This document shows, in pieces, positions 2,090-23,968 of a DNA stretch of 32,000 nucleotides. Under the pieces are notes generated by a model. That model was not told the origin of the DNA. It searched no databases and saw nothing but the letters and a program-made list of their open reading frames with translations. The stretch comes from Desulfobulbus propionicus DSM 2032 (GTDB lineage Bacteria; Desulfobacterota; Desulfobulbia; Desulfobulbales; Desulfobulbaceae): assembly GCF_000186885.1 (NCBI RefSeq), contig NC_014972.1:1830001-1862000 (forward strand), read 5' to 3'. A program made the position numbers and the translations under genes. Within the stretch, counting starts at the first letter, position 1. Every line of letters starts with the position of its first letter.

Positions 2090-2163
2090 AGCAATCACCC
2101 CGACAAAGCGGGGCGCAGGGTAATCGGTATTTCATTCTTCATTCATGCTCAAGGGTGCGGGAT

Positions 2164-2856
2164 ATGGAAAACAAGACAGTACGGCCGATCCGGAAGAGTG
2201 AAAAGGGCGTGCCGGAGCCGACACTGCGTCGTTTGCCGTTGTATTACCGCCTCTTGAAACAGTTGCGCGAGGTCGGTCGCTCCGGCGTCTCCTGCACCAT
2301 GATCGGCACCGAACTCAAGCTCGATGCCACTCAGGTTCGCAAAGACATCGAGATGACCGGCACCGTGGGACGGCCGAAGGTGGGATACGATGTCAACGAG
2401 CTAATCTGCGCCATCGAAAAATTTCTCGGTTGGGACATCTCCACCGAGGCCTTTCTCGTCGGTGCGGGCAGCCTGGGGGAAGCGCTGATGGGCTACCCCG
2501 GCTTTGCCGAGTGCGGTCTTGATATCGTGGCCGCCTTCGATGTCGACCCGAACAAATGCCATCGGGTCATTCACGGCAAGCATGTCCGCCACATCAGCAA
2601 GCTGCCCGGCCTGATGCGCCGAATGCGCGTTCGTTTCGGGATTATCACTGTTCCCGCGTCCGAGGCCCAGCAGGCGGCCGACTTGCTGGTCGAGGGCGGG
2701 GTATTGGCCATTTGGAATTTTGCCCCGGCAAAGATACACGTGCCGGACCGTGTCATTGTGACCAACGAAGATCTGTACTGCTCGCTGGCCGTCCTGTCGC
2801 AAAAAATGACCAGGAAGCTGGCCGAGTCCCGTTCAAAAGGAGTATCCAAATCATGA
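2164..2856 (+). CDS. rex: Redox-sensing transcriptional repressor Rex
   Basis: The N-terminal winged-helix signature is present (PEPTLRRLPLYYRLLKQL...VSCTMIGTELKLDATQVRKDI). A Rossmann GxGxxG follows (LVGAGSLGEAL). I prefer the ATG at 2164 over the track GTG at 2155. The stop overlaps the next start (ATGA). Confidence 0.92.
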   Translation: MENKTVRPIRKSEKGVPEPTLRRLPLYYRLLKQLREVGRSGVSCTMIGTELKLDATQVRKDIEMTGTVGRPKVGYDVNELICAIEKFLGWDISTEAFLVGAGSLGEALMGYPGFAECGLDIVAAFDVDPNKCHRVIHGKHVRHISKLPGLMRRMRVRFGIITVPASEAQQAADLLVEGGVLAIWNFAPAKIHVPDRVIVTNEDLYCSLAVLSQKMTRKLAESRSKGVSKS

Positions 2857-3368
2857 CCACACTTGAGCAGGATGCCGTATCGCAAACGCCTGCGCGCCGT
2901 TACGAAAAAGTTTGCACGATCCTTGAACAGCACGACAACCAACCACAACGACTGATTCCTATCCTTCAAGCCGTCCAGGAGGAGTACCGCTATCTGCCCG
3001 AAGACGTGCTCACTTTTGTCGCCGCCGGCCTTGATGTGCCGCCGGCGCGTGTCTACGGCGTGGCTACCTTCTATTCCCACTTCGCCCTCGAACCCAAGGG
3101 CAAGTACTGCATCCGCTTGTGCGACGGCACCGCCTGCCATGTCAAACGTTCCATTCCCATCCTGGAGGCCATCTACAAGCGGCTGGGCCTGTCCAGCAAG
3201 CGCACCACCACCGAGGACATGCTGTTCACCGTGGAGACCGTCGCTTGTCTCGGCGCCTGCGGCCTGGCGCCGGTGGTGGTGATCAACGAGGAGGTGCATG
3301 GCCAGATGACGCCTGAAGCAGCCATTCAACTCATCAACGAGATCGAGGAGCGGGAGAAGGTATCATGA
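2853..3368 (+). CDS. hydC: [FeFe]-hydrogenase small electron-transfer subunit, NuoE-like thioredoxin-like [2Fe-2S] protein (HydC/HndA type)
   Basis: The start is Met100 of track ORF 2556..3368 (MTTLEQD...). The NuoE pattern is present: CDGTAC...CLGAC (Cx4C...Cx3C) and VATFYSHF. ATGA overlaps occur at both ends. Confidence 0.9.
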   Translation: MTTLEQDAVSQTPARRYEKVCTILEQHDNQPQRLIPILQAVQEEYRYLPEDVLTFVAAGLDVPPARVYGVATFYSHFALEPKGKYCIRLCDGTACHVKRSIPILEAIYKRLGLSSKRTTTEDMLFTVETVACLGACGLAPVVVINEEVHGQMTPEAAIQLINEIEEREKVS

Positions 3369-5266
3369 ACACCATGCAACAAACAGTGAATAATGCCGAC
3401 CCGTTGATGGGTGCCCAACGACGGGTGGTGATCTGCGCCGGCACCGGCTGCGTCGCCAACGGCGCCATGAAGGTCCATGCCGCCTTTCAGCAGCGGATGG
3501 CCGAGAAGAATCTACCCTTTGTCCTCGAACTCCGGGAAGAAAACGACAATAGCGGCAAGACCGCCTTCACCCGCAGCGGCTGTCAGGGGTTCTGTCAGAT
3601 GGGGCCGCTGGTGACGGTCCTGCCGGAGAACATCCTCTACACCCAGGTCAAACCGGCCGATATCGACGAAATCATCGAGACCAGCCTGATCGGCGGCGGG
3701 GTCGTCGAGCGGCTGTTGTACAGCGAGCCAGGCAACGGGCACGCGTGCAAGGGCACCGACGACATCCCCTTCTACACCCGCCAGCAGCGGTTCGTGCTCG
3801 GCGACTGCGGCACCATCGATCCGGAAAGCATTGACGAATACCTGCGCAACGGCGGCTATGAGGCGGCCAAGAAGGCTTTTCTGCAGATGTCGCCCGAGGC
3901 GATCTGCACCGAGATCTCCGAATCCGGCCTGCGCGGCCGAGGCGGCGGCGGCTTTCCCACCGGCCGCAAGTGGGAGGCGGCCCGCCGTCAGGCAGGAGAC
4001 AAGAAGTATGTCATCTGTAACGCCGACGAGGGCGACCCCGGTGCGTTCATGAACCGCAGCGTCATGGAGGGCAACCCCCACAGCGTCATCGAAGGTCTGA
4101 TGATCGCCGCCCGGGCCATCGGCGCCGACGAGACCCTGGTCTATGTGCGCGCCGAGTATCCGTTGGCGGTCGAACGCATGCGGCGTGCGGTCAAGGATGC
4201 CACCGCCCGTGGCATTCTCGGCGAAAACGTCTTTGGTTCCGGACTCAACATCAGCTGCGAGATCATGGAAGGGGCGGGTGCCTTTGTCTGCGGCGAGGAG
4301 ACGGCGATGATCGCCTCCATCGAGGGGCAGCGCGGCATGCCCCGGCCCAAGCCGCCGTTTCCGGCGCAAAGCGGTTTGTGGGGCAAGCCGACCATCATCA
4401 ACAACGTCGAGACCCTCGCCCACGCGGTACGCATTGTCCGCGAAGGGGCCATCCGTTTCCGCCAACTGGGCACCCCTGGTTCCCCGGGCACCAAGACTTT
4501 TGCCCTCACCGGCCATGTGGCCAACACCGGTCTGATCGAGGTGCCGTTTGGCACCACCCTGCGGGAGATCGTCCACAACATCGGCGGCGGCGTCACCAAG
4601 AGTGACGGCAGCATCGATCCTACCGGGTTCAAGGCGGTGCAGATCGGCGGGCCTTCGGGCGGCTGTCTGACCCAGGAGCACCTCGATCTGCCCATGGATT
4701 TCGACTCCTTGCGCACCGTGGGCGCCATGGTGGGCAGCGGCGGCCTGGTGGCCATGAACCAGGACACCTGCATGGTGTCGGTGGCCCGGTTCTTCATGGA
4801 GTTCACCCAGCGCGAGAGCTGCGGCAAGTGCGTGCTCTGCCGGGAGGGTACCCGCCAGATGCTGGCCCTGATGGACGACATCATCGAGGGGCGGGCCGAC
4901 GAGACCACCCTGCCGCTGCTCAGGGAACTGGCCGTGGCGGTGCAGAAGGGCTCGCTGTGCGGCCTGGGCAAGACCGCGCCCAATCCGGTGCTCTCCACCC
5001 TGCGTCATTTTCCGGAAGAGTACGAGGCTCATGTCCGCGACAAGGTCTGTCCGGCCGGTCAGTGCAAGGCCCTACTCAAGCCGTGGATCAATGCCGAGAA
5101 GTGCAAGGGCTGCGGCAAGTGCGCCAAGAAATGCCCGGTGGAGGCGATCAGCGGCGAACTCAAACAGCCGCATGTGATCGATCAGGACAAGTGTATCAAG
5201 TGCGGGGCCTGCCTGCAGTCCTGCAAATTCGGGGCAGTCGAGGGATTGCAAGGAGGTCAGGCATGA
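3365..5266 (+). CDS. hydB: [FeFe]-hydrogenase flavoprotein subunit, NuoF-like (HydB/HndC type)
   Basis: The N-terminal Trx-like domain has CAGTGC...CQGFC. The NuoF FMN/NADH region has [14 protein letters not shown] and a [11 protein letters not shown]-type segment. A [4Fe-4S] motif is [10 protein letters not shown]...C. The C-terminus has 2x CxxCxxCxxxCP ([23 protein letters not shown]). Confidence 0.95.
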
Positions 5267-7314
5267 TGAAGACGAAAACCGCCGCCCTCACCATTGACGG
5301 CCGCAAGGTGGCCATCGAGGGCGAGAAGAACCTGTTGGAGCTGGTGCGCAAGGCGGGCATCGACCTGCCCACCTTCTGTTATCACTCCGACCTGAGCGTT
5401 TACGGCGCCTGCCGCCTCTGTCTGGTCGACGTCGAGGGCCGCGGCATTCTCGGCGCCTGTTCGACCCCGCCGGAGCCGGGGTTGGTGGTGCGCACCAACA
5501 CCGAGGAGCTGCGCGAGATCCGCAAGATTTCAGTGGAACTGCTCCTGGCCAATCACGACCGGGAGTGCACCAGCTGCGTGCGCAGCGGCTCCTGTCAGTT
5601 GCAGGACATCGCCCGCCGGCTGGGGATCACCAAGATCCGCTACCGCTCCATCCACCAGCCCAAACCGGTGGATACCTCCAGTCCGTCGCTGATCCGTGAT
5701 CCCAACAAGTGCGTGCTCTGCGGCGACTGTGTCCGCTTCTGCGATGAGATTCAGAGTATCGGCGCCATCGATTTCGCTTTCCGGGGTCACGATGCCATGG
5801 TGCTGCCTGCCTTTGGCCATGATCTCGGCACCACCGAGTGCGTCAACTGCGGTCAGTGTGCCTCGGTCTGCCCCACCGGCGCCCTGGCACCGGCCTCGGA
5901 GATCGATGCGGTGTGGAAGGCGATCCACGATCCCAACACCGTGGTGGTGGCTCAGATCGCCCCGGCGGTGCGGGTGGCCATCGGCGAGCAGTTCGGTCTG
6001 GAGTACGGGCTCAACACCACCGGCCAGGTGGTGGCGGCCATGAAGCGGATGGGGTTTAACATCGTCTACGACACCAGCTTCACCGCCGACCTCACCGTGG
6101 TCGAGGAGGCGGGTGAGTTCATGGCCCGCAAGACCAACGGCGAGCGATTGCCGCTGTTCACCAGCTGTTGCCCGGGCTGGGTCAAGTTTGCCGAGCAGTA
6201 TTTCCCGCAGCTCTTGGGTAACCTCAGCTCCTGCCGTTCGCCGCAGCAGATGATGGGGTCCATGGTCAAGCACACCCTGCCGGCGCAGCTCGGTCGGGAG
6301 CGCAAGGATGTGGTCATGGTGTCGATCATGCCCTGCACGGCCAAGAAGTTCGAGGCCAAACGGCCGGAGTTCAAGACCGGTGGCTCGCCGGACGTGGATT
6401 TCGTCCTCACCACCCAGGAACTGGCGAGGATGATCGAGGAGTCGGGTCTGAGCCTCAACAAGCTCAATCCGGCCAGCTTCGACATGCCCATGGGTTTCAA
6501 GACCGGTGCCGGGGTCATCTTCGGCAACTCCGGCGGCGTCACCGAGGCAGTGCTGCGTTATGCGGTGGGCAAGATCACCGGCCAGAACCCGGTCGATCCT
6601 GAGTTCGAGGAGATCCGCGGCGAAGAGTCGCTACGCGTCATCCGCACCGAGGTCGGCGGCCTGGAGCTGAAACTGGCCATTGTCCACGGCCTGGGCAAGG
6701 CCCGCGAGGTGATGCACCAGATTCTCGACGGCTCGCTGATCGTCGATCTGGTCGAGGTCATGGCCTGTCCGGGCGGCTGCATCGGCGGCGCCGGCCAGCC
6801 GGTGGGCCGCGACATCGCCGAACGGCGGCGGGCGCGTACCGAATGGCTGTACAACACCGACCGGTTGCTCGATCTGCACTGCTCGCAGGAGAACCACTTC
6901 GTGAACGAGTGCTATCAGAAGTACTTGGGCGAACCGGGCAGTCGCGAGTCCCATCGTCTGCTCCATACCCACTACCACCACCGCCGCCGCACCGGCAGCG
7001 AGGAACTGGCCCTGGCCAAGGCCAAGGAGAGCGGCGACGGCGTGCTGACCGTGCGGGTCTGCGCCGGCACCGGCTGCTTTCTGCGCAACTCCCAGGCCAT
7101 TATCCAGGGCCTGATGAAACATGTCGAGGCCAACGACCTCGACGACAAGGTCCAGGTGCAGGCTTCCTTCTGCTTCGAGATGTGCGGCGAGGGACCCAAT
7201 GTGGCGGTGGGCGACACCATCATCAACCACGCCACCCTGGATGTGGTGATCAACGCCGTCCATGCCGAACTGGCACAGATGGCCTCGGGCCAGATGCAGG
7301 CCGACGCCTGCTGA
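5263..7314 (+). CDS. hydA: [FeFe]-hydrogenase catalytic subunit with N-terminal [2Fe-2S]/[4Fe-4S] ferredoxin domains and a C-terminal thioredoxin-like [2Fe-2S] domain
   Basis: The start is Met146 of track ORF 4828..7314 ([13 protein letters not shown]), overlapping the hydB stop. All three canonical H-cluster motifs are present: TSCCPGW, MPCTAKKFEA and EVMACPGGCIGGAGQP. The C-terminal tail has CAGTGC...CFEMC. Confidence 0.95.
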   Translation: MMKTKTAALTIDGRKVAIEGEKNLLELVRKAGIDLPTFCYHSDLSVYGACRLCLVDVEGRGILGACSTPPEPGLVVRTNTEELREIRKISVELLLANHDRECTSCVRSGSCQLQDIARRLGITKIRYRSIHQPKPVDTSSPSLIRDPNKCVLCGDCVRFCDEIQSIGAIDFAFRGHDAMVLPAFGHDLGTTECVNCGQCASVCPTGALAPASEIDAVWKAIHDPNTVVVAQIAPAVRVAIGEQFGLEYGLNTTGQVVAAMKRMGFNIVYDTSFTADLTVVEEAGEFMARKTNGERLPLFTSCCPGWVKFAEQYFPQLLGNLSSCRSPQQMMGSMVKHTLPAQLGRERKDVVMVSIMPCTAKKFEAKRPEFKTGGSPDVDFVLTTQELARMIEESGLSLNKLNPASFDMPMGFKTGAGVIFGNSGGVTEAVLRYAVGKITGQNPVDPEFEEIRGEESLRVIRTEVGGLELKLAIVHGLGKAREVMHQILDGSLIVDLVEVMACPGGCIGGAGQPVGRDIAERRRARTEWLYNTDRLLDLHCSQENHFVNECYQKYLGEPGSRESHRLLHTHYHHRRRTGSEELALAKAKESGDGVLTVRVCAGTGCFLRNSQAIIQGLMKHVEANDLDDKVQVQASFCFEMCGEGPNVAVGDTIINHATLDVVINAVHAELAQMASGQMQADAC

Positions 7315-7331
7315 GCACGGCATAAACGAGC

Positions 7332-7367
7332 GCTCCCGCCGGGATCTGTGCGGTATCCGGCGGGAGC
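7332..7367 (+). terminator. GC-rich hairpin 18 nt after the hydA stop, a possible partial terminator
   Basis: GCTCCCGCCGG (7332-7342) pairs with CCGGCGGGAGC (7357-7367). It is followed by CTGTTCATTGATTCATGTTT, which is T-containing but not a clean U-run. Confidence 0.4.
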
Positions 7368-7389
7368 TGTTCATTGATTCATGTTTCGC

Positions 7390-7438
7390 TCCTCCGTGGC
7401 GTGGCCGCTTTCGCGACAGGCGGCCGTGCCGCGGAGGA
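7390..7438 (+). other. Long imperfect hairpin (19 paired positions including 3 G-U pairs), foldable only as a + strand RNA
   Basis: TCCTCCGTGGCGTGGCCGC (7390-7408) pairs with GCGGCCGTGCCGCGGAGGA (7420-7438). The three non-Watson-Crick positions are G-U on the + transcript but would be C-A mismatches on the opposite strand. Confidence 0.4.
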
Positions 7439-7516
7439 ATTGCGCAGAAAAGGCATCCGGTCACGATGCTCAATAAATTCGACAACGCTCCCAGACTACT
7501 CCAAGATGCGCTGCGT

Positions 7517-7546
7517 GGACTCCGGTATGGGCTGATACCGGAGTCC
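7517..7546 (+). other. Perfect 12-bp stem with a 6-nt loop in the hydA/aspA-like intergenic region
   Basis: GGACTCCGGTAT gggctg ATACCGGAGTCC is an exact inverted repeat. No U-run follows it. Confidence 0.4.
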
Positions 7547-7670
7547 TGTCGATTCGCTCCCCGTCCTTCTGATTTTCCCTTGGCCGCCCCCTTAGTCCGT
7601 CTTACTATTGGCCCATGATTGCCTCCATTTTCGTTCTTCACCTCTCTTTTCCCTTCCGAGAGTAACCGGT

Positions 7671-9089
7671 ATGGCCACGACCCGACCCGAAACCGATTCC
7701 CTCGGCACGCGCGAGGTCCCTGCCGCACCCCTGTGGGGAATTCATACCCTCAGGGCCCTGGAGAATTTCCCGCTCACCGGCCGACCGATCCACCCCCTGT
7801 TGGTCCGGTCCCTCGGCCTGGTCAAGCTGGCCGCGGCCCAGACCAATCACCGGCTGGGCGCCTGGAGCGACGATGACGACAAAGCCTCTGCCATCCTGGC
7901 CGCCTGCACCGAGATGGCCGAGGGCGGCTTAGGATCGGCCATCGTGGTCGATGCCCTCCAGGGAGGGGCCGGCACCAGCGCCAACATGAATGTCAACGAG
8001 GTGCTGGCCAACCGGGCCCTGGAACTGCTGGGCTGTGGTCGGGGTGAGTACACCCGCGTCAATCCCCTCGATGACCTCAACCTCCACCAGTCGACCAACG
8101 ATGTCTTTCCCACCGCCCTGAAAATCGCGGCCTTGCTCTCGCTCGACCGGCTGGAACAGCGGGTGGTGGCCCTGCAGGAGGCGCTACAGGAGCAGGAGCA
8201 GCGGTGGGCCCATGTGGTCAAGGTGGGCCGCACCGAAATGCAGGACGCGGTGCTGATCACCGTGGGTCGCGGCTTCGGCGCCTATGCCGAGGCCATCAAT
8301 CGCGACCGCTGGCGCATCTCCAAATGCCGGGAGCGGCTGCGGGTGGTCAACCTCGGCGGTACCGCCGTGGGCACCGGTCTGGCCGCGCCGCGCCGCTATA
8401 TCTTCGAGGTTACCGAGGCCCTGCGCCAGCTCACCGGGCTCAGTCTGGCCCGGGCCGAGAACCTGGTCGAGGCCACCCAGAATGTGGATGTCTTTGTCGA
8501 GGTCTCGGGTATCCTCAAGGCCCATGCCGCCAGCCTGTTGAAAATCTGCACCGATCTGCGTCTGCTCAGTTCCGGCCCGGACGCCGGTCTGGCCGAGATC
8601 CGCTTGCCTGCGCGTCAGGCCGGTTCCTCGATCATGCCGGGCAAGGTCAACCCGGTGATCCCCGAGGCGGTCAGTCAGGCGGCCATGCTGGTGATCGGCA
8701 ACGACACGACCCTGACCCTGGCCTGCGCCTCGGGCAGCCTGGAACTCAATCCCTTTTTGCCGCTGGTGGCCCTGACCCTGCTCGACAACCTCGACCTGCT
8801 CGCCCAGGCTGACGACATCCTCTGTCGCCACTGCATAGTCGGCATCAAGGTCGACGAGGCGCGCTGCGCCCGTCAGGTGGAAAACTCCACCGCCTCGGCC
8901 ACGGCCCTGCTGCCGGCCATCGGCCATGAACGGGCCGCGGAGATCGCGCGCAAGGCGGCGCACACCGGCACCAGTGTCCGTGAGCTGGCCCGCGAGGCCG
9001 GGATCAGCGACGTCCAGTTCGATCAACTCACCAGCGCCACCGCGGTCTGCCGCTTAGGCTTTGTCCCTCCCTCCACCGAAAAACGATAA
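7671..9089 (+). CDS. Aspartate ammonia-lyase / class II fumarase superfamily protein (aspartase-like), embedded in the hydrogenase maturation operon
   Basis: The start is Met22 of track ORF 7608..9089 (MATTRPETDSLGTREVPAAPLWGIHTLRALENF), which parallels the E. coli AspA N-terminus as I recall it. Conserved segments are GGAGTSANMNVNEVLAN, HQSTNDVFPTA, and the fumarate-lyase signature/SS loop GSSIMPGKVNPV. Confidence 0.88.
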   Translation: MATTRPETDSLGTREVPAAPLWGIHTLRALENFPLTGRPIHPLLVRSLGLVKLAAAQTNHRLGAWSDDDDKASAILAACTEMAEGGLGSAIVVDALQGGAGTSANMNVNEVLANRALELLGCGRGEYTRVNPLDDLNLHQSTNDVFPTALKIAALLSLDRLEQRVVALQEALQEQEQRWAHVVKVGRTEMQDAVLITVGRGFGAYAEAINRDRWRISKCRERLRVVNLGGTAVGTGLAAPRRYIFEVTEALRQLTGLSLARAENLVEATQNVDVFVEVSGILKAHAASLLKICTDLRLLSSGPDAGLAEIRLPARQAGSSIMPGKVNPVIPEAVSQAAMLVIGNDTTLTLACASGSLELNPFLPLVALTLLDNLDLLAQADDILCRHCIVGIKVDEARCARQVENSTASATALLPAIGHERAAEIARKAAHTGTSVRELAREAGISDVQFDQLTSATAVCRLGFVPPSTEKR

Positions 9090-9093
9090 CATC

Positions 9094-10344
9094 ATGTCGC
9101 AATCCGCACCCAAGGGCCTCCGCCTCCATATCGGCCTCTTTGGCCGCCGCAATGTCGGCAAGTCGAGTCTGCTCAACGCCATTACCCGCCAGCAGGTGGC
9201 CATCGTCTCCAACGTGGCCGGTACCACCACTGATCCGGTGGAAAAGCCGATGGAGCTGCTGCCGCTCGGGCCGGTGCTGTTCATCGATACCGCCGGCGTG
9301 GACGATGTCGGCGCGCTGGGCGAGATGCGCATCGCCCGCACCCGCGCGGTGTTCGACCGCACCGACCTGGGCATCCTCGTCGCGGCCGGCGGCGAGTGGG
9401 GCTCATTTGAAACCGAGTTGCTCGCCGCCCTGACCGCGCGCCAGGTCCCGGTGCTGGTGGTGATGAACAAGCTCGATCAGGGCCGCGCCAGCGACACCCT
9501 GACGGCCGAGCTGGCTGCCAAAAAGATCCCGCTGGTGCATACCGCCGCCCTCAACGGCGAGGGCATCGCCGAATTGAAACAGGCCATTGTCGCCCAGACC
9601 CCGGCCGATTTCCTCACCAGTCCGGCCATCATCTCCGATCTGGTCGGCCCCGGGGAGTTGGCGGTACTGGTGGTACCGATCGACAAGGAAGCGCCCAAGG
9701 GACGGCTGATCCTGCCCCAGGTACAGACCATCCGTGACCTGCTCGACGGCGATGCCATGAGCCTGGTGGTCAAGGAACGCGAACTGCGTCATGCCCTGGA
9801 CCAGCTCACATCGCCCCCCAAGTTGGTGGTGACCGACTCGCAGGCCTTTCTCAAGGTGGCCGCCGACGTGCCGCCCGAGGTCAAGCTGACCAGCTTCTCC
9901 ATCCTTTTTTCCCGCTGCAAGGGCGATCTGCTCACCCAGGTGGAAGGGGCCCTGGCCATTGACCGGTTGCAGCCCGGCGACCGGGTGCTGATGGCCGAGG
10001 CCTGCGCCCATCATCCCATCGGCGAGGATATCGGCCGGGTCAAGATTCCCCGTTGGCTGACCCAGTATGTCGGCGGCCAACTCGCGTTCACCCATGTCCA
10101 GGGCCATGATTTCCCGCCCGATCTGCACGAATACCAGTTGGTGATCCAGTGCGGCTCCTGCATGCTCAACCGTCGCGAGGTGCTCAGCCGCATCCTTCGC
10201 TGCCGCGAGGCCGGCGTGCCGATCACCAACTACGGTTTGGCGATTTCCTACAGCCTGGGCATCTTCACCCGAGCCCTGAGCCCCTTTCCCGCGGCCCTGG
10301 AACTCCTGCACAGTGCGGATCAGGGACGGTGCGAAGGGCGATGA
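9094..10344 (+). CDS. hydF: [FeFe]-hydrogenase maturation GTPase HydF
   Basis: The start is Met12 of the track ORF. GTPase motifs are GRRNVGKSS (G1), DTAG (G3) and NKLD (G4). The C-terminal cluster-binding region is CAH-x45-QCGSC. Confidence 0.88.
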   Translation: MSQSAPKGLRLHIGLFGRRNVGKSSLLNAITRQQVAIVSNVAGTTTDPVEKPMELLPLGPVLFIDTAGVDDVGALGEMRIARTRAVFDRTDLGILVAAGGEWGSFETELLAALTARQVPVLVVMNKLDQGRASDTLTAELAAKKIPLVHTAALNGEGIAELKQAIVAQTPADFLTSPAIISDLVGPGELAVLVVPIDKEAPKGRLILPQVQTIRDLLDGDAMSLVVKERELRHALDQLTSPPKLVVTDSQAFLKVAADVPPEVKLTSFSILFSRCKGDLLTQVEGALAIDRLQPGDRVLMAEACAHHPIGEDIGRVKIPRWLTQYVGGQLAFTHVQGHDFPPDLHEYQLVIQCGSCMLNRREVLSRILRCREAGVPITNYGLAISYSLGIFTRALSPFPAALELLHSADQGRCEGR

Positions 10345-11660
10345 CCATGGATCGCAAAGAAATTCTTCATTGGTTGCGCTGCGACGACCCGAAGGAACTG
10401 GAGCAGCTGTGGCGCCTGGCCGACCGGGCCCGGCAACAGCACGTGGGCGAGGCCGTGCACCTGCGCGGCCTGGTCGAGATCTCCAACTACTGCGCCCGTT
10501 CCTGCCACTATTGCGGGTTGCGCGCCCCCAACCGTCAGGTCAGCCGCTACCGCTTGAGCGCCGAGGAGATCCTCGACTGCGCCGATCAGGCGGTCCGGCT
10601 CGGGTATGGCACCCTGGTGCTGCAGTCGGGCGAGGACGACCGCATCGAGGCCGAGTGGCTGGCCAGCCTGCTGCGGCACATCAAGGCCACCACGCCGCTG
10701 GCCCTGACGCTGAGCCTGGGCGAGCGGAGCGAGGACGACCTGCGCATCTGGCGGGAGGCCGGGGCTGATCGCTACCTGCTGCGCTTTGAAACCTCGGACC
10801 GCGCCCTCTACCGGGCCATCCACCCGGACCGGGGCGCCCGGGTGTCGGATCGGCTGGCCCTCCTCCGCCAGTTGAAGAGCCTGGGCTATGAGACCGGCAG
10901 CGGCGTCATGGTGGGGATTCCAGGGCAGAGTTATGCAATCCTGGCCGACGATATCCTCTTGTTTCGCGAGCTCGATCTCGACATGATCGGCATCGGCCCC
11001 TTTATCGCCCATCCGGATACACCCCTGGGGCAGGCCGCCTCGCCCCTGCCCGGTGAGACGCAGGTGCCGCCCTCCATCGGCATGACCTGCAAGGCCGTGG
11101 CCCTGGCCCGGATCCTGCGGCCGGACGCCAACATTCCGGCCACCACCGCGGTGGCGGTCATGGATGCCTGGCAGGGGAGGGAACTGGCCCTGCGCTGCGG
11201 GGCCAACGTGATCATGCCCAACCTGACGCCGGCCCGGTTTCGCGAACACTACACCATCTATCCGGGCAAGGCGGACCGGATCGAGGCGGCCGAGCAGAGC
11301 GATCAACAGATTCGCAGCCAGATCAAGGCCATGGGCCGTGGCATCGGTTCGGGTCAGGGCGGACGGAAAAGTGGAACCCAAACGGAACCGGCCGCGCCCG
11401 CCACCCTGCGCATCGCCGTGTGCATGGGCAGCTCCTGTTTCTCCCGGGGCAACAACAGCCAGGCGATCGACACCCTGCGCCACTGTGTCGAGGATGCCGG
11501 GTTGGTGCCGGACATCTCCGGCCATCTGTGCGAAAACCTCTGCACCCAGGGGCCGAACATCACCATCGGCGAGACGATCTACTCCAACGTGCAGCCGTCC
11601 TGTTTCCCCGAACTGCTCAAACACCACCTCGCCAGCACCAAGGAGGGACGCGATGGATAG
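10341..11660 (+). CDS. hydE: [FeFe]-hydrogenase maturase HydE (radical SAM) fused to a C-terminal thioredoxin-like [2Fe-2S] ferredoxin domain
   Basis: The start is Met65 of track ORF 10149..11660 (MTMDRKEILHWL), with an ATGA overlap onto the hydF stop. The radical-SAM motif is ISNYCARSCHYCGLR. After a Gly/Pro-rich linker (GIGSGQGGRKSGTQTEPAAPA), an extra ~85 aa carries CMGSSC...CENLC (Cx4C...Cx3C). Confidence 0.88.
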   Translation: MTMDRKEILHWLRCDDPKELEQLWRLADRARQQHVGEAVHLRGLVEISNYCARSCHYCGLRAPNRQVSRYRLSAEEILDCADQAVRLGYGTLVLQSGEDDRIEAEWLASLLRHIKATTPLALTLSLGERSEDDLRIWREAGADRYLLRFETSDRALYRAIHPDRGARVSDRLALLRQLKSLGYETGSGVMVGIPGQSYAILADDILLFRELDLDMIGIGPFIAHPDTPLGQAASPLPGETQVPPSIGMTCKAVALARILRPDANIPATTAVAVMDAWQGRELALRCGANVIMPNLTPARFREHYTIYPGKADRIEAAEQSDQQIRSQIKAMGRGIGSGQGGRKSGTQTEPAAPATLRIAVCMGSSCFSRGNNSQAIDTLRHCVEDAGLVPDISGHLCENLCTQGPNITIGETIYSNVQPSCFPELLKHHLASTKEGRDG

Positions 11661-13392
11661 ACGCTCGCCCATCTATACCGAGAAACACGAGTGCCAGGAC
11701 TGCTATAAGTGCGTTCGCCAATGCCCGGTCAAGGCCATCCGGGTGCAGGATGCCTATGCCACCATTGTCGACGAGATGTGCGTGTACTGCGGCATTTGTG
11801 TCTCCATCTGCCCCAACACCGCCAAGCATGTGCGCAACGATTTGCCCCGGGCCCGCCAACTGGTCAAGCTGCCGCCCCGGGTGCTGGTCTCGCTCGCCCC
11901 CTCGTGGATCACCGAATTCCCCAACATCGAGGCCGGTCAGCTGATCGCCGCCCTCAAACGGCTCGGCTTTGCCGCTGTCTCCGAGACCGCACTCGGCGCC
12001 CAGCAGGTCAGCGCCCATGTGGCCGAGACGCTGCGCGAACAGCCGGGCCAGATCCTGCTCAGCTCGGCCTGCCCGACCGTGGTGGCCTATATTCAGAAGC
12101 ACCGGCCGCAGCTGGCCGGGGCCGTCACCGCGCTCCTCTCGCCCCTGCTGGCCCACTGCCGCATGCTCAAGCGCCACTATGGCGAAGAGAGCGCCATTGT
12201 TTTCATCGGCCCCTGCATCGCCAAGAAACTTGAGGCCGACGAACACCCGGACCTGCTCGATATCGCCCTGACCTTCGAGGATTTGCGCATCTGGATGGCG
12301 GCGGAGCGGATCGATCCCCGCGCCCTGACCCCGGCGACCGACGACCGGTTCGAGCCCCAGGCCGCCGAGGAGGGTGTGCTCTATCCGGTGGATGGCGGCA
12401 TGATCGCCGGCATCCGCGCCCACTGCAGCGTTGATGACGGTGCGTTCATGAGTTTTTCCGGCTTGGCGGCGGTGGAGAACGCCCTCGACGGGCTGGAGGA
12501 TCTGGACCCGATGCAGGGGTTGTTTCTGGAGTTGTTGGCCTGCGAGGGCGGCTGCATCAACGGCCCCAAGGTCACCCGGCCGGGCAGCACCGTGACCAAG
12601 CGGCAGCGGGTGCTGGCCCATGCCCGCTTCCCGGAGACGCAACCCGTGCCCCGACCGCCGGAGCTCGATATCCGCCGGTCTATCATGCCCCGGCCGCTCA
12701 GCCAGCCCACGCCCACCGAGACCCGCATCTCGGAAGTCCTGCGATCCATCGGCAAGCGCTCGATCGAGGACGAACTCAACTGCGGCGGTTGCGGCTACGA
12801 CTCCTGCCGCGAATTCGGCAAGGCCCTGATCGCCCAGCGGGCCGAGCGGGCCATGTGCGTCTCCTGGATGCGGCAGCTGGCCTTCAAGAAGGCCAACGTG
12901 CTCATCCACAAGATGCCCTCGGCCGTGGTGATCGTCGATGGCGACCTGCGGGTGCTGGAATGCAACGCCGCCTTTGTGGCCATCATCAACCACCTGCGTC
13001 CGGTGTCGCTGCCGGCGGAACTGGAGGGAACGTCGGTGGCCGAGCTGCTGCCCTTCCATAACCTCTTTGCCAGCGTGCTCAAGAACGACATGGATATCCT
13101 CGACCGGGATATCCGTTTCCTCGATACCATCCTCCACCTGTCCATCTTCACCATCGACCCGCACGCAGTGGTCGGCGCCATCCTCCAGGACATCACCCGA
13201 CCGGCGGTACAGAAGGAGCAGGTGATCCGGCGGGCCCGCGAGGTCATCCAGAAAAACCTGGCCACGGTGCAGAAGATCGCCTACCTGCTGGGCGAAAACG
13301 CGGCCGAATCCGAGGTCACCCTCAACAGCATCATCGAGTCGTTTTCGCCGGCCAAGATCGAAGGCGACGAGGGAGGCAGCCTTGGCGACTGA
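11653..13392 (+). CDS. hydS: Sensory-type [FeFe]-hydrogenase homologue (HydS-like): 2x[4Fe-4S] ferredoxin, degenerate H-domain, Cx2Cx4Cx16C motif and PAS domain
   Basis: The start is Met106 of track ORF 11338..13392 (MDRRSPIYTEKHECQDCYKCVRQCP), with an 8-nt overlap onto hydE. The H-cluster motifs are altered: SSACPTV (vs TSCCPxW), GPCIAKKLEA (vs MPCxxKxxE) and ELLACEGGCINGPKV (vs ExMxCxxGCxxGGGQP). CGGCGYDSC-x16-C lies at 12781-12858. A PAS-like tail follows (VVIVDGDLRVLECNAAF...ILQDITR). Confidence 0.85.
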   Translation: MDRRSPIYTEKHECQDCYKCVRQCPVKAIRVQDAYATIVDEMCVYCGICVSICPNTAKHVRNDLPRARQLVKLPPRVLVSLAPSWITEFPNIEAGQLIAALKRLGFAAVSETALGAQQVSAHVAETLREQPGQILLSSACPTVVAYIQKHRPQLAGAVTALLSPLLAHCRMLKRHYGEESAIVFIGPCIAKKLEADEHPDLLDIALTFEDLRIWMAAERIDPRALTPATDDRFEPQAAEEGVLYPVDGGMIAGIRAHCSVDDGAFMSFSGLAAVENALDGLEDLDPMQGLFLELLACEGGCINGPKVTRPGSTVTKRQRVLAHARFPETQPVPRPPELDIRRSIMPRPLSQPTPTETRISEVLRSIGKRSIEDELNCGGCGYDSCREFGKALIAQRAERAMCVSWMRQLAFKKANVLIHKMPSAVVIVDGDLRVLECNAAFVAIINHLRPVSLPAELEGTSVAELLPFHNLFASVLKNDMDILDRDIRFLDTILHLSIFTIDPHAVVGAILQDITRPAVQKEQVIRRAREVIQKNLATVQKIAYLLGENAAESEVTLNSIIESFSPAKIEGDEGGSLGD

Positions 13393-14563
13393 GACGGCCT
13401 TCATCGACGTCGACCATGCCCTGCGCTGCAAGCATCGCCAGTCGATCTGCGGTGATGTCTTTCTCAGTCATCGGATCAAGGAAGAGGGGCGGATCCTGGC
13501 GGTGCTTTCCGACGGCCTCGGTTCCGGGGTCAAGGCCTCGGTGTTGGCCAACCTCACCGCCGCCATGGCGCTCAAGTTCGCCTCCACCTGCACCGATCCC
13601 CGGGCGTGGGCGCGGTCGATCATGGATACCCTGCCGATCTGCGAGGTGCGCAAGATCAGTTACTCCACCTTCACCCTGATCGATCTCGACGAGAGCGGCG
13701 CCCTGCGCTTCATCGAACACGGCAACCCGCCGCTGGTGCTGCTGCGCGGCACGAGCGAGGTGGAGCTGCACCGGTCGCTGATCACCCTTGATCGGTGGAA
13801 GGATCGCCTGATCTATCACGGCCGGCTGCAACTGGCCATCGGCGACCGATTGCTCTGTTTTTCCGACGGCGTCACCCAATCGGGCATGGGACAACGGACC
13901 ATGCCGCTCGGCTGGACCCGGGAGGAGGCGGTGGCCTGCGCCCAGGAGCTGATCCGTGCCGATGCGGATATCTCCTCGCGGCGGCTGACCGCGGCGCTGA
14001 TGGAGCGGGCCCTGACCAACGACAGCGGCTGCGCCCGCGACGACACCAGCTGCGCGGTGATCCATTTCCGGGTGCCACGGCAGCTGTTGATCATGACCGG
14101 GCCGCCCTTTGCGCCGCAACGCGATTTCGAACTGGCACGGGCCGCCTCGACCTTTCCCGGCAAAAAGATCATCTGCGGCGGCACCACCGCGACCATCATC
14201 GGCCGCATTCTCCGCCGGCCGATCAGCGTCGATCTCACCCAGGCCGATACCGGCATGCCGCCGCCGGCGCGGATGGAGGGCATTGACCTGATCACCGAGG
14301 GGGCCTTGACCCTGGCCCACGTGGCCCAACTGCTGGCCACGGGCGTCACCGTCGAACGGCTGCCGAACAATCCGGCCGGGGACATCGTCCGTCTCATGTT
14401 CGGCAGCGATCTCATTCACTTTATCGTCGGCACCCGGATCAACGAGGCCCATCAGGACCCCAACACCCCGCAGGAACTCGATCTGCGCCGCAACATCGTC
14501 CGCCGCATCGTCTCGCTTCTTGAGGAAAAGTACCTCAACACCACGTCGGTCCGCTTTCTCTGA
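13382..14563 (+). CDS. PP2C/SpoIIE-family serine phosphatase with an uncharacterised ~160-aa C-terminal domain
   Basis: A TTG start at 13382 has a GGGAGG SD 5 nt upstream and overlaps hydS by 11 nt. There is no in-frame ATG before the catalytic domain. PP2C metal-site pattern: CGDVF, LSDGLGSGVKAS, FSDGVTQSG, ARDDTSCAV. I could not assign the C-terminal part (GKKIICGGTTATIIGR...). Confidence 0.8.
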   Translation: MATETAFIDVDHALRCKHRQSICGDVFLSHRIKEEGRILAVLSDGLGSGVKASVLANLTAAMALKFASTCTDPRAWARSIMDTLPICEVRKISYSTFTLIDLDESGALRFIEHGNPPLVLLRGTSEVELHRSLITLDRWKDRLIYHGRLQLAIGDRLLCFSDGVTQSGMGQRTMPLGWTREEAVACAQELIRADADISSRRLTAALMERALTNDSGCARDDTSCAVIHFRVPRQLLIMTGPPFAPQRDFELARAASTFPGKKIICGGTTATIIGRILRRPISVDLTQADTGMPPPARMEGIDLITEGALTLAHVAQLLATGVTVERLPNNPAGDIVRLMFGSDLIHFIVGTRINEAHQDPNTPQELDLRRNIVRRIVSLLEEKYLNTTSVRFL

Positions 14564-14586: not shown

Positions 14587-15513
14587 TCAGCGGCGCACTT
14601 CGACGGGATTGGAGAGAACCAGGTCGAGCATCTGGGGAAAGGGTTTGTTGCAGAAGGTCAGCTGGAGGGTGTATCGACCGCCGGACAGATCCGGCGGCAG
14701 GGTGGCGGTGAGGAAGCGGGAGGCCTTGCGGTTCTTGATCGGTACACAGTCGGTGCCGTTACTTTGGTCGAGGCTGACGGTGGCCACCGGCGGATGCGGA
14801 CTGCCGGCCCGGAAGATCTGAACCGTCGGCCGCACTCCGAAATCAAAGGTGCTGACACTGGACAACGACAGTCGCACCTTTTCTCCCGGCCTGTAACGGT
14901 CAAAATCGGTGGCCAGGTGGAGGTGGCGGTTGTAATCCGGCTCCGGGGAACGGGTACCCGAGGTCGCCGCCTCCCAAAAGCGCGGCCGGCCGGCGTCGAA
15001 ATGGACGGTCTTGCCGCCGTAATGACCGATGCCGCCGCAGTTTTTTTGCCGGATCGTTTCCCACAGCTGTTTCCCGTCCACCCCCTCCAGCCAGAAATCG
15101 AGTGCCAGACCGTCCATGTGGGTGCTGGTCCGGGCGGCATTGTTGCCCTGGGCGCGGATTTGGTCGTTGTATTCGGGGCTGCGGTAGGCGGATTCGATGT
15201 TGATCGTCTTGCCCGGCGCCATGCGCTCGGCAAAGTAGCTGAGCATGAACAGCATTCGCGGCGAGATGTGTTCGCCCTTCTCCTCGGTGGGGAAGCCGAA
15301 CACCCAATCCACGGTGGCGAAATCACGTTCGTTGAACGATCCGTCCGGGTTGAGCAGGTGCACCCTGGCCTCGCGGTCGTTGCGCAGGTTCTTGAGGTGC
15401 ATGGAACCGCTGCCCATGAGGAAGAAGCGTTCCGAGGGCTGGGTGGCAGTGCTGTCTGTCGCCTGAAACAACAGAAAAACAGTGTAAAGAAAAATAAAGA
15501 TAATGTGTTGCAT
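14587..15513 (-). CDS. Secreted DUF882 / peptidase M15A-type (YcbK/MepK-like) metallopeptidase with a C-terminal extension
   Basis: I prefer Met66 of track ORF 14587..15708 (MQHIIFIFLYTVFLLFQATDS), which is signal-peptide-like. Family pattern: INIESAYRSPEYN...STHMDGLALDF...GKTVHFD (His/Asp zinc ligands). Confidence 0.78.
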   Translation of the reverse strand: MQHIIFIFLYTVFLLFQATDSTATQPSERFFLMGSGSMHLKNLRNDREARVHLLNPDGSFNERDFATVDWVFGFPTEEKGEHISPRMLFMLSYFAERMAPGKTINIESAYRSPEYNDQIRAQGNNAARTSTHMDGLALDFWLEGVDGKQLWETIRQKNCGGIGHYGGKTVHFDAGRPRFWEAATSGTRSPEPDYNRHLHLATDFDRYRPGEKVRLSLSSVSTFDFGVRPTVQIFRAGSPHPPVATVSLDQSNGTDCVPIKNRKASRFLTATLPPDLSGGRYTLQLTFCNKPFPQMLDLVLSNPVEVRR

Positions 15514-15599
15514 GAGATTGGTCGGGCGTTGGTGCGGTGGCCGTGTTCGCTGGCGGGAAGAATCCGTTTGCCTGCTGGTCGATGGGTGCTGCCCCCTTG

Positions 15600-15893
15600 T
15601 CAGGCGGGCAGATTTTCCACCACCACCCCTTTCAGCCGTATTCCCTTGACCAGATTGTCGCGGGTGTTTTGTTTGCTCTTGATCTGTAGCTGCAGCCAAG
15701 ATCGCCATTCCTCCCGCTGCTGGGCCCGGGGCGAACCCGGTTCCAGGGGCGGACTGCTTTCCAGCTGCACGCGGACCTGCTGGATCTCCTCGGTCAGCCG
15801 GTCATACTGCTCCTGAAAAAAAGCCAGATCGCGGATGGTCTGGTAATCGATGGTAATGCTCTGATTGGTGATCTGTTTGGGGTCGTCGGTCAT
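15600..15893 (-). CDS. Hypothetical small protein (97 aa), predicted helical/coiled-coil
   Basis: A GAGGTG SD lies 7 nt upstream of the ATG. It is co-oriented with the peptidase gene and directly upstream of it. I recognised no family. Confidence 0.45.
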   Translation of the reverse strand: MTDDPKQITNQSITIDYQTIRDLAFFQEQYDRLTEEIQQVRVQLESSPPLEPGSPRAQQREEWRSWLQLQIKSKQNTRDNLVKGIRLKGVVVENLPA

Positions 15894-23751: not shown

Positions 23752-23968
23752 TGATTGAATATAATATTTCATTGAGCAAGATGGCCGTTGTTTCGGTCGG
23801 GCCAAGGCCGATACCTGTTTCCTTTCTATCCACGTGCGAGCGGCACGGATGAGTAAAAAGTATCCAGCCGATGCGGCCGCCCCTGATCAGCCTCCAGGTC
23901 AAAGCGGCCATCATCGGCAAAAAGATCACCGCTGTTCCCCTGGATTGATCCTTGCAAAGACCGCCGAC

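Follow-up and report, generated by a model that had tools for sequence, protein, structure and literature searches.

The C-terminal domain of a HydS-coupled PP2C phosphatase recurs as a stand-alone protein beside ferredoxin and [FeFe] hydrogenase genes

The signal output of the putative H2-sensing [FeFe] hydrogenases is an acknowledged open question: papers of 2024 and 2026 describe both the signalling mechanism and the partners of these enzymes as unknown (PMC11376134, PMC13104023), and the H2-sensing role itself is called putative (PMC5037454, PMC11376134, PMC13104023). A stretch of 32,000 nucleotides from the genome of Desulfobulbus propionicus DSM 2032 (hereafter, the window) poses this question in a concrete form. 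Here, the gene for a sensory-type hydrogenase, HydS, is followed by the gene for a PP2C phosphatase with a C-terminal domain (CTD) that an earlier, sequence-only reading could not assign, and for which that reading saw no kinase or substrate gene nearby. What is this domain, and with which partners does the phosphatase work?

The same reading took the locus to be unusual, which it is not: the pairing of HydS with a phosphatase is already classified as group C3, the 'phosphatase-linked' sensory [FeFe] hydrogenases (PMC5037454, PMC6776011). The window gene is a typical representative of the large group C3 phosphatase family (hfsB/hfsC of Thermoanaerobacterium). Its product can be regarded as orthologous in kind to HfsC of Thermoanaerobacterium, judging by synteny and by the domains that have been published for HfsC. 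What is new is the occurrence of the CTD as a stand-alone protein that heads ferredoxin/hydrogenase operons.

The hydS-phosphatase locus of Desulfobulbus

The cluster is headed by rex, which encodes a redox-sensing repressor (2155..2856, forward strand, as are the features that follow down to the phosphatase gene; Pfam Put_DNA-bind_N and CoA_binding). It continues with hydC, hydB and hydA of an electron-bifurcating-type [FeFe] hydrogenase (2556..7314, the ORF limits, the true hydC and hydA starts being internal), with the Pfam domains 2Fe-2S_thioredx; Complex1_51K and NADH_4Fe-4S; and Fe_hyd_lg_C and Fe_hyd_SSU. No match to the canonical Rex operator was found in the window at up to 3 mismatches. 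The maturase genes hydF and hydE (9061..11660; NCBIfam TIGR03918, 5.7e-167, and TIGR03956, 1.2e-94) come directly before hydS, the genes overlapping at their starts and stops. HydE is fused at its C-terminus to a thioredoxin-like [2Fe-2S] ferredoxin domain (11406..11657; BLASTP, Pfam 2Fe-2S_thioredx) that in most other phyla is a separate gene of ~90 codons directly before hydS; the small ORFs found there match the ferredoxin part of HydE in BLASTP and carry the same Pfam domain. The 579-aa group C sensory-type [FeFe] hydrogenase encoded by hydS (11653..13392, ATG behind AAGGAGG) matches Fe_hyd_lg_C (1.7e-43) and FeS (PF04060, 2.6e-8) in Pfam. In its H-domain, SACP (SACPTV) replaces TSCCP and the proton-relay Cys is absent; the C-terminal cluster motif is Cx2Cx4Cx16C (CGGCGYDSC-x16-C), and the C-terminus is weakly PAS-like: PAS, PAS_4 and PAS_8 reach E~0.004-0.006, short of the Pfam thresholds.

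The HfsC-type gene (13382..14563) is a 393-aa ORF with a TTG start codon. This TTG (13382-13384) is the first start codon past the in-frame stop at 13223, and the hydS stop codon is the TGA at 13390-13392, which gives an overlap of 11 nt. A Shine-Dalgarno sequence read as GGGAGG (13371..13376) lies in the 3' end of hydS, 5 nt before the TTG, and the resulting N-terminus, MATETAFIDVD, lines up with those of the homologues. The phosphatase gene is translationally coupled to hydS. The coordinates bear out the TTG start and Shine-Dalgarno sequence already proposed from the letters, as well as the next gene, a convergent DUF882/M15 peptidase (14587..15708, reverse strand; Pfam Peptidase_M15_2, E=5.6e-19), which closes off the operon on its 3' side in the window and is outside the sensory system. 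No convincing intrinsic terminator was found 3' of the phosphatase gene, candidate counts being at shuffle level.

The N-terminal half of the protein (aa ~7-230; 13400..14071, forward strand) is a SpoIIE/PP2C (PPM) phosphatase domain by Pfam, PDB profile and Foldseek. The Pfam SpoIIE model (PF07228) spans aa 35-229 with E=2.9e-17 and 63.7 bits (cutoff 25); the PDB profile search matches SpoIIE at E~1e-10. Foldseek aligns the AF2 model with SpoIIE 5mqh (E=1.1e-14, TMt 0.71) and with 3pu9 (TMt 0.78), both in keeping with the PP2C beta-sandwich fold. RsbX, an RsbU-like protein and RssB are the other best matches in the PDB. The metal-binding motifs are in place, namely, CGDVF (aa 23-27), SDGLGSG (43-49), SDGVTQSG (161-168) and DD (220-221), and D25, D44, G45, D162, G163, D220 and D221 are invariant across 31 homologues, in agreement with the intact pattern claimed earlier. 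The domain is SpoIIE-type and, from its sequence and modelled fold, predicted to be catalytically intact.

Related loci and the search for a kinase

The arrangement is widespread. Among 82 related loci, which come from more than 12 phyla, 81 have hydS immediately upstream of the PP2C-CTD gene; the two overlap or abut in 55 of these loci and lie within 30 nt of each other in 73. Full-length homologues of the window protein are ~392 aa long, with 56-89% identity, and nearly all of the best 120 show this length with ~99% coverage. The window protein belongs to the same two-domain family that dominates C3-type loci. A monomeric hydrogenase gene directly follows PP2C-CTD in 39 of the 74 canonical loci with enough DNA, and an ORF for a small ferredoxin lies between these two genes in 29 loci.

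The window shares with hfsABCD of T. saccharolyticum, with the Ruminococcus albus locus, where a Ser/Thr phosphatase subunit adjoins HydS, and with the HydDB C3 loci the gene order small Fe-S protein, HydS, serine phosphatase; the published HydS proteins contain a PAS domain, to which the C-terminus of HydS in the window bears a weak likeness. In these loci, an Fd-dependent hydrogenase often follows, and rex and adhE are found nearby (PMC5707799, PMC11837493, PMC6776011, PMC5037454). Unlike the hfs-type loci, the cassette in the window ends an operon, hydCBA, aspA-like, hydF, hydE; no monomeric hydrogenase and no separate small ferredoxin gene come after the phosphatase gene, and the ferredoxin is fused to HydE.

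A deletion mutant of hfsC, the homologue in Thermoanaerobacterium, has been made (PMC5707799). Deletion of hfsA, which lies directly upstream of hfsB in the position of the small ferredoxin here, or of hfsB produces one phenotype, which depends on intact hfsC and hfsD, and deletion of hfsC or hfsD produces another; hydrogenase activity rises on hfsB deletion, and the phenotypes are complex and ascribed in part to polar effects (PMC5707799).

With SpoIIE, RsbU and RsbX, the window phosphatase shares the catalytic fold and the metal-binding motifs. These phosphatases carry N-terminal regulatory domains and are encoded together with a STAS substrate and a HATPase Ser kinase, whereas the window protein has its PP2C domain right at the N-terminus, with an unrelated domain C-terminal to it. 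Within the window, no Ser kinase or STAS gene was found near the phosphatase gene; the sole kinase is a PAS-HisKA-HATPase histidine kinase (23834-25828), ~9 kb off behind hrpA, an NTP-transferase gene and priA. The ORFs of 85 related loci were searched with phmmer using SpoIIAB, RsbW, SpoIIAA, RsbV and PknB as seeds. In these loci, the SpoIIAB/RsbW kinase seeds have no match, the STAS seeds have one (7 kb away, on the opposite strand), and the Hanks-kinase seed has one (distant, opposite strand). No recurrent kinase family appears among the unlabelled neighbours, and no kinase-like gene is present in the two loci from Bacillota-labelled MAGs, the statement that Firmicutes loci carry a kinase being repeated in a passage of PMC5707799 that cites Zheng 2014 (R. 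albus). The lack of a linked kinase or STAS gene, noted before for this locus, is accordingly a feature of the whole family and not peculiar to it. The cassette of a thioredoxin-like [2Fe-2S] module, HydS and PP2C-CTD is conserved in many phyla with no kinase or STAS gene in cis. Because of this absence, the earlier suggestion that kinase and substrate are encoded elsewhere fits the data. Rex, one candidate target then named, recurs in the flanks of 19 related loci carrying a PP2C match, and not in all.

In concept, the putative HydS sensor resembles the regulatory [NiFe] hydrogenase HoxBC with HoxJ (a PAS histidine kinase) and HoxA of Cupriavidus, in which a low-activity hydrogenase serves as H2 sensor with PAS-type coupling to a phospho-signalling enzyme, and phospho-signalling controls hydrogenase expression (PMC5707799, PMC6776011). 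The Hox system differs in metal centre, proteins and chemistry, with a histidine kinase and response regulator instead of a Ser/Thr phosphatase, and there is no homology.

Sequence and fold of the C-terminal domain

The CTD (aa ~231-393, ~163 aa; 14072..14560, forward strand) is a conserved Rossmann-like alpha/beta domain with no match in the libraries searched. It includes QLLIMTGPPF, CGGTTA and VGTRINEAHQDP, and its conserved loops are TGPP, D248, CGGTT, TEG, VGTxxN(E)AHQDP and RRN. The CTD of the window protein matches no Pfam or NCBIfam model, and a PDB profile search gives no sequence match at E<=10; among 60 diverse CTDs, Pfam names no family, and none matches the methylglyoxal synthase (MGS) family at E<=1. 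The earlier impression that this region resembles nothing recognisable therefore holds for Pfam, NCBIfam and PDB sequences, and the fold search then proposed, run with Foldseek, yielded no well-characterised domain below E=1e-3 in PDB and BFVD. With the full-length model, the PP2C half alone was matched.

The CTD is carried by 830 clusters at 50% identity, in a nearly constant position (aa ~230-393 of ~390-aa proteins). It is always C-terminal, with no extension, and no fusions to ferredoxin, hydrogenase or other domains were found among these proteins. Measured by invariant columns, 44/166 against 48/227, the CTD is conserved as strongly as the PP2C half. Proteins of intermediate length, considered as new architectures, proved to be truncated or split PP2C-CTD genes, and apparent sigma-54, PhoU and DsrH 'fusions' were fragments or sub-threshold matches.

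The AF2 model of the CTD (pLDDT 93.4, pTM 0.89) is a Rossmann-like, three-layer alpha/beta fold with the conserved residues on loops after parallel strands and CGGTT at a helix N-terminus. It resembles the MGS-like folds (MgsA, the IMP cyclohydrolase domain of PurH and the allosteric domain of CPS) in its three layers and parallel strands and, by eye, in two loops, of which the GTT-type phosphate loop follows strand 2 and the H-x-DP loop follows strand 4; a beta-hairpin and a helix are additional in the CTD. On a rival reading of this architecture, the domain would be chiefly a small-molecule sensor, whose Rossmann/MGS-like pocket would take up a phosphorylated metabolite, a nucleotide or flavin/NAD(P)H and which would gate PP2C allosterically. 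Metabolic state would then be integrated with the H2 signal of HydS, and the stand-alone CTDs described below would regulate or serve the adjacent hydrogenase in a ligand-dependent manner. The confident fold, the conserved loops TGPP, CGGTT, TEG and VGTxxN, and the conserved D, E, H and R speak for this reading, and the most consistent, if weak, Foldseek matches are binders of phosphate ligands, above all methylglyoxal synthases (probability 0.93-0.98, E 6e-3 to 3e-2, TM 0.38-0.50), followed by the MGS-like domains of PurH and CPS and by UbiX flavoproteins. In local mode, hhalign places KiIcGGTTA..R of the CTD on the MGS phosphate loop yATGTTG..R, over 37-45 columns at a probability of 8-12%; in global mode, nothing aligns. 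All these similarities are, however, below significance (Foldseek E>=1.5e-3, TM<=0.5), AHQDP and RRN are partly lost in the stand-alone CTDs, and no ligand can be named, which makes a chiefly sensory role somewhat unlikely. We do not claim homology to MGS, since loops that look alike by eye are offset by the low hhalign probability and the lack of a Pfam match; we keep the likeness as a weak resemblance of the modelled fold alone.

The constant absence of a kinase gene would be explained if the CTD itself had a new type of kinase or phosphotransferase activity, so that the protein would be a self-contained, bifunctional kinase/phosphatase switch like HprK/P or AceK. The glycine-rich GGTT loop and the conserved Asp, His and Arg residues are candidate ligands of phosphate and metal, and 5 of the 60 CTDs marginally match NBD_C (PF17042, of DUF1537 kinases, with a GGDTA-like motif). 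These matches, at E>=0.033, are at chance level and were discarded; the window protein has none, and neither NBD_C structures nor any kinase fold appear among the Foldseek matches of the CTD, or NBD_C structures among its PDB matches. Moreover, stand-alone CTDs encoded with no phosphatase would be unopposed kinases, and MGS-like or Rossmann-like domains of 160 aa are not known to be protein kinases. We consider such a switch very improbable.

Stand-alone CTDs and the partner of the phosphatase

The CTD is also encoded alone, as proteins of 164-199 aa. The 164-aa form makes up one cluster (90% level, 527 members), found on contigs of up to 808 kb, and longer forms have 179-199 aa. In several lineages, the operon order is CTD, thioredoxin-like [2Fe-2S] ferredoxin, monomeric [FeFe] hydrogenase; the small ferredoxin is always adjacent, and the hydrogenase is present wherever the DNA reaches far enough. 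These operons contain neither HydS nor PP2C. With dN/dS of 0.26-0.35, the stand-alone CTDs are under purifying selection; they could be deletion remnants that acquired or retained a different role.

These proteins bear on the view that the CTD docks on the PAS domain of HydS and passes conformational change in HydS to the PP2C site, with kinase and substrate encoded elsewhere. Regulatory domains are the norm in SpoIIE/RsbU-type phosphatases, and the strict adjacency and translational coupling of hydS and PP2C-CTD speak for such docking, as do the invariably C-terminal position of the CTD and, in the model, its junction of 3 residues with the PP2C core. However, CTDs persist under selection where HydS, and hence any PAS partner, and PP2C are absent, and a direct PAS-PP2C contact explains the coupling to HydS equally well; docking as the main function of the CTD is distinctly unlikely. 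From gene context, the CTD looks like an autonomous hydrogenase/ferredoxin-associated module more than a HydS-PAS docking element, and its conserved neighbours suggest that it partners the ferredoxin/hydrogenase module. The adjacency shows functional linkage, not physical binding.

We therefore favour, with middling confidence, a scheme in which the product of the window gene serves as output subunit in a group C3 H2-sensing system and the CTD is a hydrogenase/ferredoxin-associated tether. HydS and its small [2Fe-2S] partner would report H2 or redox state and control the phosphatase by direct contact, and the CTD would anchor the phosphatase on its partner, either a thioredoxin-like ferredoxin or a hydrogenase; the glycine-rich loops of the CTD may also bind a phosphorylated small ligand. 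Given such tethering, the substrate of the phosphatase would be either a phosphoprotein in or close to the hydrogenase machinery or a regulator, Rex for example, and a kinase encoded elsewhere would phosphorylate it. In the Desulfobulbus window, the CTD would probably pair with the thioredoxin-like modules found in HydABC and fused to HydE, since no monomeric hydrogenase follows, an extrapolation by analogy with the other loci.

A bolder version of this scheme, which we consider rather unlikely, makes the CTD an unrecognised family of accessory subunits of ferredoxin-linked [FeFe] hydrogenases and PP2C-CTD a hydrogenase-bound phosphatase; in a still more extreme form, the CTD would supply the opposing phosphotransfer activity. 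If the accessory-subunit reading is true, hydrogenase activity would be set post-translationally by the H2 sensor, acting through PP2C-CTD on the complex itself, in place of a classical kinase/STAS/sigma or transcription-factor cascade.

The phosphatase is the sole conserved candidate for the output of the HydS sensor, and no description of its CTD was found in the protein-family libraries or the literature searched. HydS-type systems influence the partitioning of H2, ethanol and acetate in rumen, gut and biofuel organisms (PMC6776011, PMC5707799). The CTD defines a new domain family for annotation, and its place beside small ferredoxins and fermentative hydrogenases provides a lead, namely, that the target and anchor of the phosphatase may lie at the ferredoxin/hydrogenase module.

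A hydrogenase cluster ending in an HfsC-type phosphatase

The phosphatase gene (13382-14563, + strand; 393 aa) is the last in a long co-directional cluster comprising rex, hydC, hydB, hydA, a lyase gene, hydF, hydE, hydS and the phosphatase itself. It starts with TTG, the earliest start codon past the in-frame stop at 13223, located 5 nt downstream of a GGGAGG sequence (13371-13376), and the gene overlaps the last 11 nt of hydS, the TGA codon of which occupies 13390-13392; this start is supported because the N-terminus of the protein aligns with the N-termini of its homologues. A SpoIIE (PP2C/PPM) domain spans residues 35-229 (Pfam; E=2.9e-17, 63.7 bits against a cutoff of 25). The protein contains all of the motifs CGDVF, SDGLGSG, SDGVTQSG and DD, whose Asp and Gly residues do not vary across 31 aligned homologues. 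The C-terminal domain (CTD; residues ~231-393) produced no match in Pfam, NCBIfam or PDB sequences, and the next gene downstream is a convergent DUF882/M15 peptidase. The sequence-only reading of this gene, which covered its start, Shine-Dalgarno sequence, overlap with hydS, PP2C motifs, unmatched C-terminus and convergent neighbour, is borne out throughout.

The cluster is headed by rex (2155-2856), followed by hydC, hydB and hydA (up to 7314) and an aspartase/fumarase-like lyase (7608-9089) between hydA and hydF. A thioredoxin-like [2Fe-2S] domain (11406-11657; motif CMGSSC...CENLC) is fused to the C-terminus of HydE; in most other phyla, this domain has a gene of its own (~90 aa) immediately upstream of hydS, and the closest relative, a Desulfobulbus MAG (L006), appears to share the fusion. 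The true ATG of hydS (11653) is preceded by AAGGAGG and overlaps the hydE stop. Judging from its sequence, HydS is typical of the sensory group C enzymes in that SACP replaces the proton-relay TSCCP and the C-terminus carries a Cx2Cx4Cx16C motif (PF04060); PAS matches in its C-terminal domain are below threshold only.

An aspartate ammonia-lyase/fumarase-family gene is conserved within the hydrogenase maturation cluster in several phyla, flanked by hydA (or hydG) and hydF (in the window, at 7608-9089, and in the related loci L001, L005-L008, L011, L012 and L023). The window lacks hydG, the maturases being HydE and HydF only. A perfect 20-bp palindrome, ATCGAGAATTAATTCTCGAT (2070-2089), in an AT-rich region upstream of rex and just 3' of a TTGACA...CATAAT-like promoter, occurs once in the window, with 0 occurrences expected by shuffling, and is a candidate operator; the canonical Rex box (TTGTGAAnnnnTTCACAA, with up to 3 mismatches) has no match anywhere in the window. 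Positions 1-2100 have 50-54% GC, compared to 63-67% in the remainder, and contain three ORFs (21-503, 653-1132 and 1308-1907) without a Pfam match; this stretch ahead of rex may be of foreign origin or rich in intergenic sequence. In L006, the phosphatase gene is followed by one for a Tat-signal-bearing periplasmic-type [FeFe] hydrogenase large subunit (9406-11256) rather than the convergent DUF882 gene; thus, the 3' neighbourhood varies even at 84% protein identity.

Conservation of the C-terminal domain with and without the phosphatase

A search of 5.8 billion proteins with the phosphatase returned thousands of matches, and among the best 120, nearly all are ~392 aa long, with ~99% query coverage and 56-89% identity. 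The CTD alone, searched against 1.84 billion cluster representatives, retrieved 830 clusters at E<=1e-3 and 495 at E<=1e-10, the great majority of which match over residues ~230-393 of a ~390-aa protein. Invariant columns make up 44 of 166 in the CTD vs 48 of 227 in the catalytic half, that is, CTD conservation at least equals that of the catalytic half. Some database entries and contigs carry broken versions of the gene: in two metagenome contigs (L095, 5761-6948; L096, 554-1741), the PP2C-CTD gene after HydS is split into 73-aa and 315-aa ORFs, many entries of ~200-330 aa are similar truncated or frameshifted forms, and the entries P0361 (222 aa) and P0401 (129 aa) from one genome correspond to the 394-aa P0400.

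The 80 genomic loci taken from GTDB species representatives come from Desulfobulbus (the closest relative, at 84% identity), Verrucomicrobia, Acidobacteriota, Nitrospirota, Bacteroidales, Spirochaetes, Planctomycetota, Lentisphaerae, Alphaproteobacteria, Gastranaerophilales, Armatimonadota, Synergistales and Bacillota. The phosphatase protein is always coupled to HydS: a hydS homologue lies directly upstream in 81 of 82 loci, the remaining locus stopping at a contig end, and the two genes overlap or abut in 55 of the 82 and are at most 30 nt apart in 73. Of 75 loci, 61 have a thioredoxin-like [2Fe-2S] ORF or domain ahead of hydS. This pairing is not new, since HydDB already names such loci group C3, 'phosphatase-linked (putative)' (PMC5037454), and the Thermoanaerobacterium counterpart consists of hfsB (HydS), hfsC (serine phosphatase) and hfsD (ferredoxin hydrogenase) (PMC5707799, PMC11837493). 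The phosphatase gene analysed here is a member of this known group C3, HfsC-type family.

Some CTD matches are short proteins with N-termini unrelated to PP2C, and a profile of seven of these brought up many more. The gene contexts of the stand-alone CTDs are consistent across loci. A 164-aa form, the 90%-identity cluster of which has 527 members on contigs of up to 808 kb, is followed by an 87-aa thioredoxin-like ferredoxin and a 488-aa [FeFe] hydrogenase, with 17-21-nt spacers (L090-L092); the divergently oriented gyrB ends 135 nt upstream, so that a PP2C domain cannot fit before this CTD. In L090, the CTD, ferredoxin and hydrogenase genes occupy 7001-7495, 7517-7780 and 7798-9264, respectively. 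Forms of 181-199 aa occur in the order ferredoxin, CTD, small ORF (ferredoxin-like in the L087 fragment) and 473-aa hydrogenase (L087, L093, L094, L099 and L100). A 188-aa form is followed by a ferredoxin, a 75-aa ORF and a 404-aa hydrogenase (L088, an NCBI MAG), a 179-aa form by a ferredoxin and an Fe-S protein (L089), and a 181-aa form lies immediately 3' of a 2x[4Fe-4S] ferredoxin gene. None of these stand-alone loci encodes HydS or a PP2C domain. The hydrogenase of L090 retains the TSCC proton-relay motif and hence looks catalytic, not sensory. The dN/dS values of the stand-alone genes, 0.26-0.35 in unsaturated pairs, indicate purifying selection.

The canonical loci contain this sub-cassette as well. 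A monomeric hydrogenase lies directly downstream of PP2C-CTD in 39 of the 74 loci with enough DNA, and hydCBA is downstream in three more; a small ferredoxin ORF recurs between PP2C-CTD and the monomeric hydrogenase in 29 loci. In the other 32, as in the window, hydABC and/or maturase genes mostly lie upstream, or the cassette is accompanied by no further hydrogenase gene. In the phosphatase, an intact PP2C is joined to a conserved domain that is autonomous and is also found, independently of PP2C, in the company of small ferredoxins and fermentative hydrogenases. We infer that the CTD is a hydrogenase/ferredoxin-associated module, a docking element or accessory subunit. The sequence-only reading had proposed, as one of two alternatives, a regulated or docking element that possibly contacts the HydS PAS domain; this idea is weakened by the existence of stand-alone forms without HydS.

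Predicted fold of the C-terminal domain

The AlphaFold2 model of the CTD, a confident one built with an alignment of 60 diverse CTDs (pLDDT 93.4, pTM 0.89), alternates between beta and alpha elements, and its strands lie at 7-12, 34-38, 69-71, 74-78, 117-122 and 160-165 (CTD numbering). In the full-length model, three residues separate the last PP2C strand (222-230) from the first CTD strand (234-239). The conserved residues map to post-strand loops (TGPP, D248, CGGTT at a helix N-terminus, TEG, VGTxxN-AHQDP and RRN); in Rossmann-like folds, ligand sites are usually on such loops. No Foldseek match in the PDB or BFVD had an E below 1e-3 or a TM exceeding 0.5. The most consistent weak matches are phosphate-ligand binders, namely, methylglyoxal synthases (MGS; prob 0.93-0.98, TM 0.38-0.50), as well as the MGS-like domains of PurH and CPS, and UbiX-type flavoproteins. 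By eye, CGGTTAxIxxR of the CTD is similar to ATGTTGxLIxR, the MGS phosphate loop, as is FxVGTRINEAHQDP to FFWDPLNAVPHDPD; hhalign gave 8-12% probability, for the first motif only. Matches to the NBD_C domain were marginal, with 5 of 60 members at E>=0.03, a chance-level result.

We conclude that the CTD represents a previously uncharacterised domain family, the three-layer alpha/beta fold of which is generic. It may bind phosphate as a distant member of the MGS-like domains, although membership is not established. The domain may have a phosphate-ligand pocket, and a ligand sensor is a serious rival to the docking module, with which it is compatible; a cryptic kinase is unlikely.

Partners, proposed role and implications

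The only kinase in the window is a PAS-HisKA-HATPase histidine kinase (23834-25828), ~9 kb away, past hrpA, an NTP-transferase gene and priA, and it is not conserved with the cassette elsewhere; no STAS protein or RsbW/SpoIIAB-type kinase was found among the window ORFs. Clustering of the unlabelled neighbour ORFs of all related loci, a result independent of seeds, recovered as recurrent neighbours a second small thioredoxin-like ferredoxin (29 loci), AdhE (18) and response-regulator/histidine-kinase genes (14), and no Ser-kinase family. A phmmer search with SpoIIAB, RsbW, SpoIIAA, RsbV and PknB as single seeds, and hence of limited sensitivity, over all ORFs of 85 loci gave two matches only, one STAS gene (7 kb off, on the opposite strand) and one distant Hanks-type kinase. 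The earlier observation that no kinase or substrate gene is nearby therefore holds as a property of the family, not a peculiarity of this locus. The substrate and kinase would have to be encoded elsewhere.

In ~14 related loci, response-regulator and (hybrid) histidine-kinase genes directly follow the PP2C-CTD gene (e.g., L008, ~9200-12311; L012, 9207-12308; L023, 9206-14781; and ~11 others), which may represent a lineage-specific downstream signalling link. The AdhE-like bifunctional alcohol/aldehyde dehydrogenase gene recurs beside the cassette in the 18 loci (e.g., L010, L026 and L041-L043), and probably at 9334-11808 of L068, in agreement with the regulatory links that have been reported (hfsB-adhE and R. 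albus).

Under the docking-module proposal, the CTD would place the phosphatase at the ferredoxin/hydrogenase machinery, and HydS with its [2Fe-2S] partner would regulate the catalytic domain. In the window, where there is no downstream monomeric hydrogenase, the thioredoxin-like modules carried by the HydE fusion and by HydA, HydB and HydC are the candidate CTD partners. The proposal fits the published hfs genetics, without being proved by it: deletion of hfsA or hfsB yields one phenotype, dependent on intact hfsC and hfsD, deletion of hfsC or hfsD yields another, and hfsB deletion raises hydrogenase activity (PMC5707799). The gene hfsA lies directly upstream of hfsB, where the related loci have the small ferredoxin.

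The CTD is a conserved domain absent from every family and structure library searched, and no mention of it was found in the hydrogenase literature examined. What is added to the known HydS-phosphatase pairing is attention to this domain. According to the literature, neither the partners nor the signalling mechanism of sensory [FeFe] hydrogenases is known (PMC11376134, PMC13104023), and the operons that combine a stand-alone CTD with a ferredoxin and a hydrogenase make this question more directly testable.
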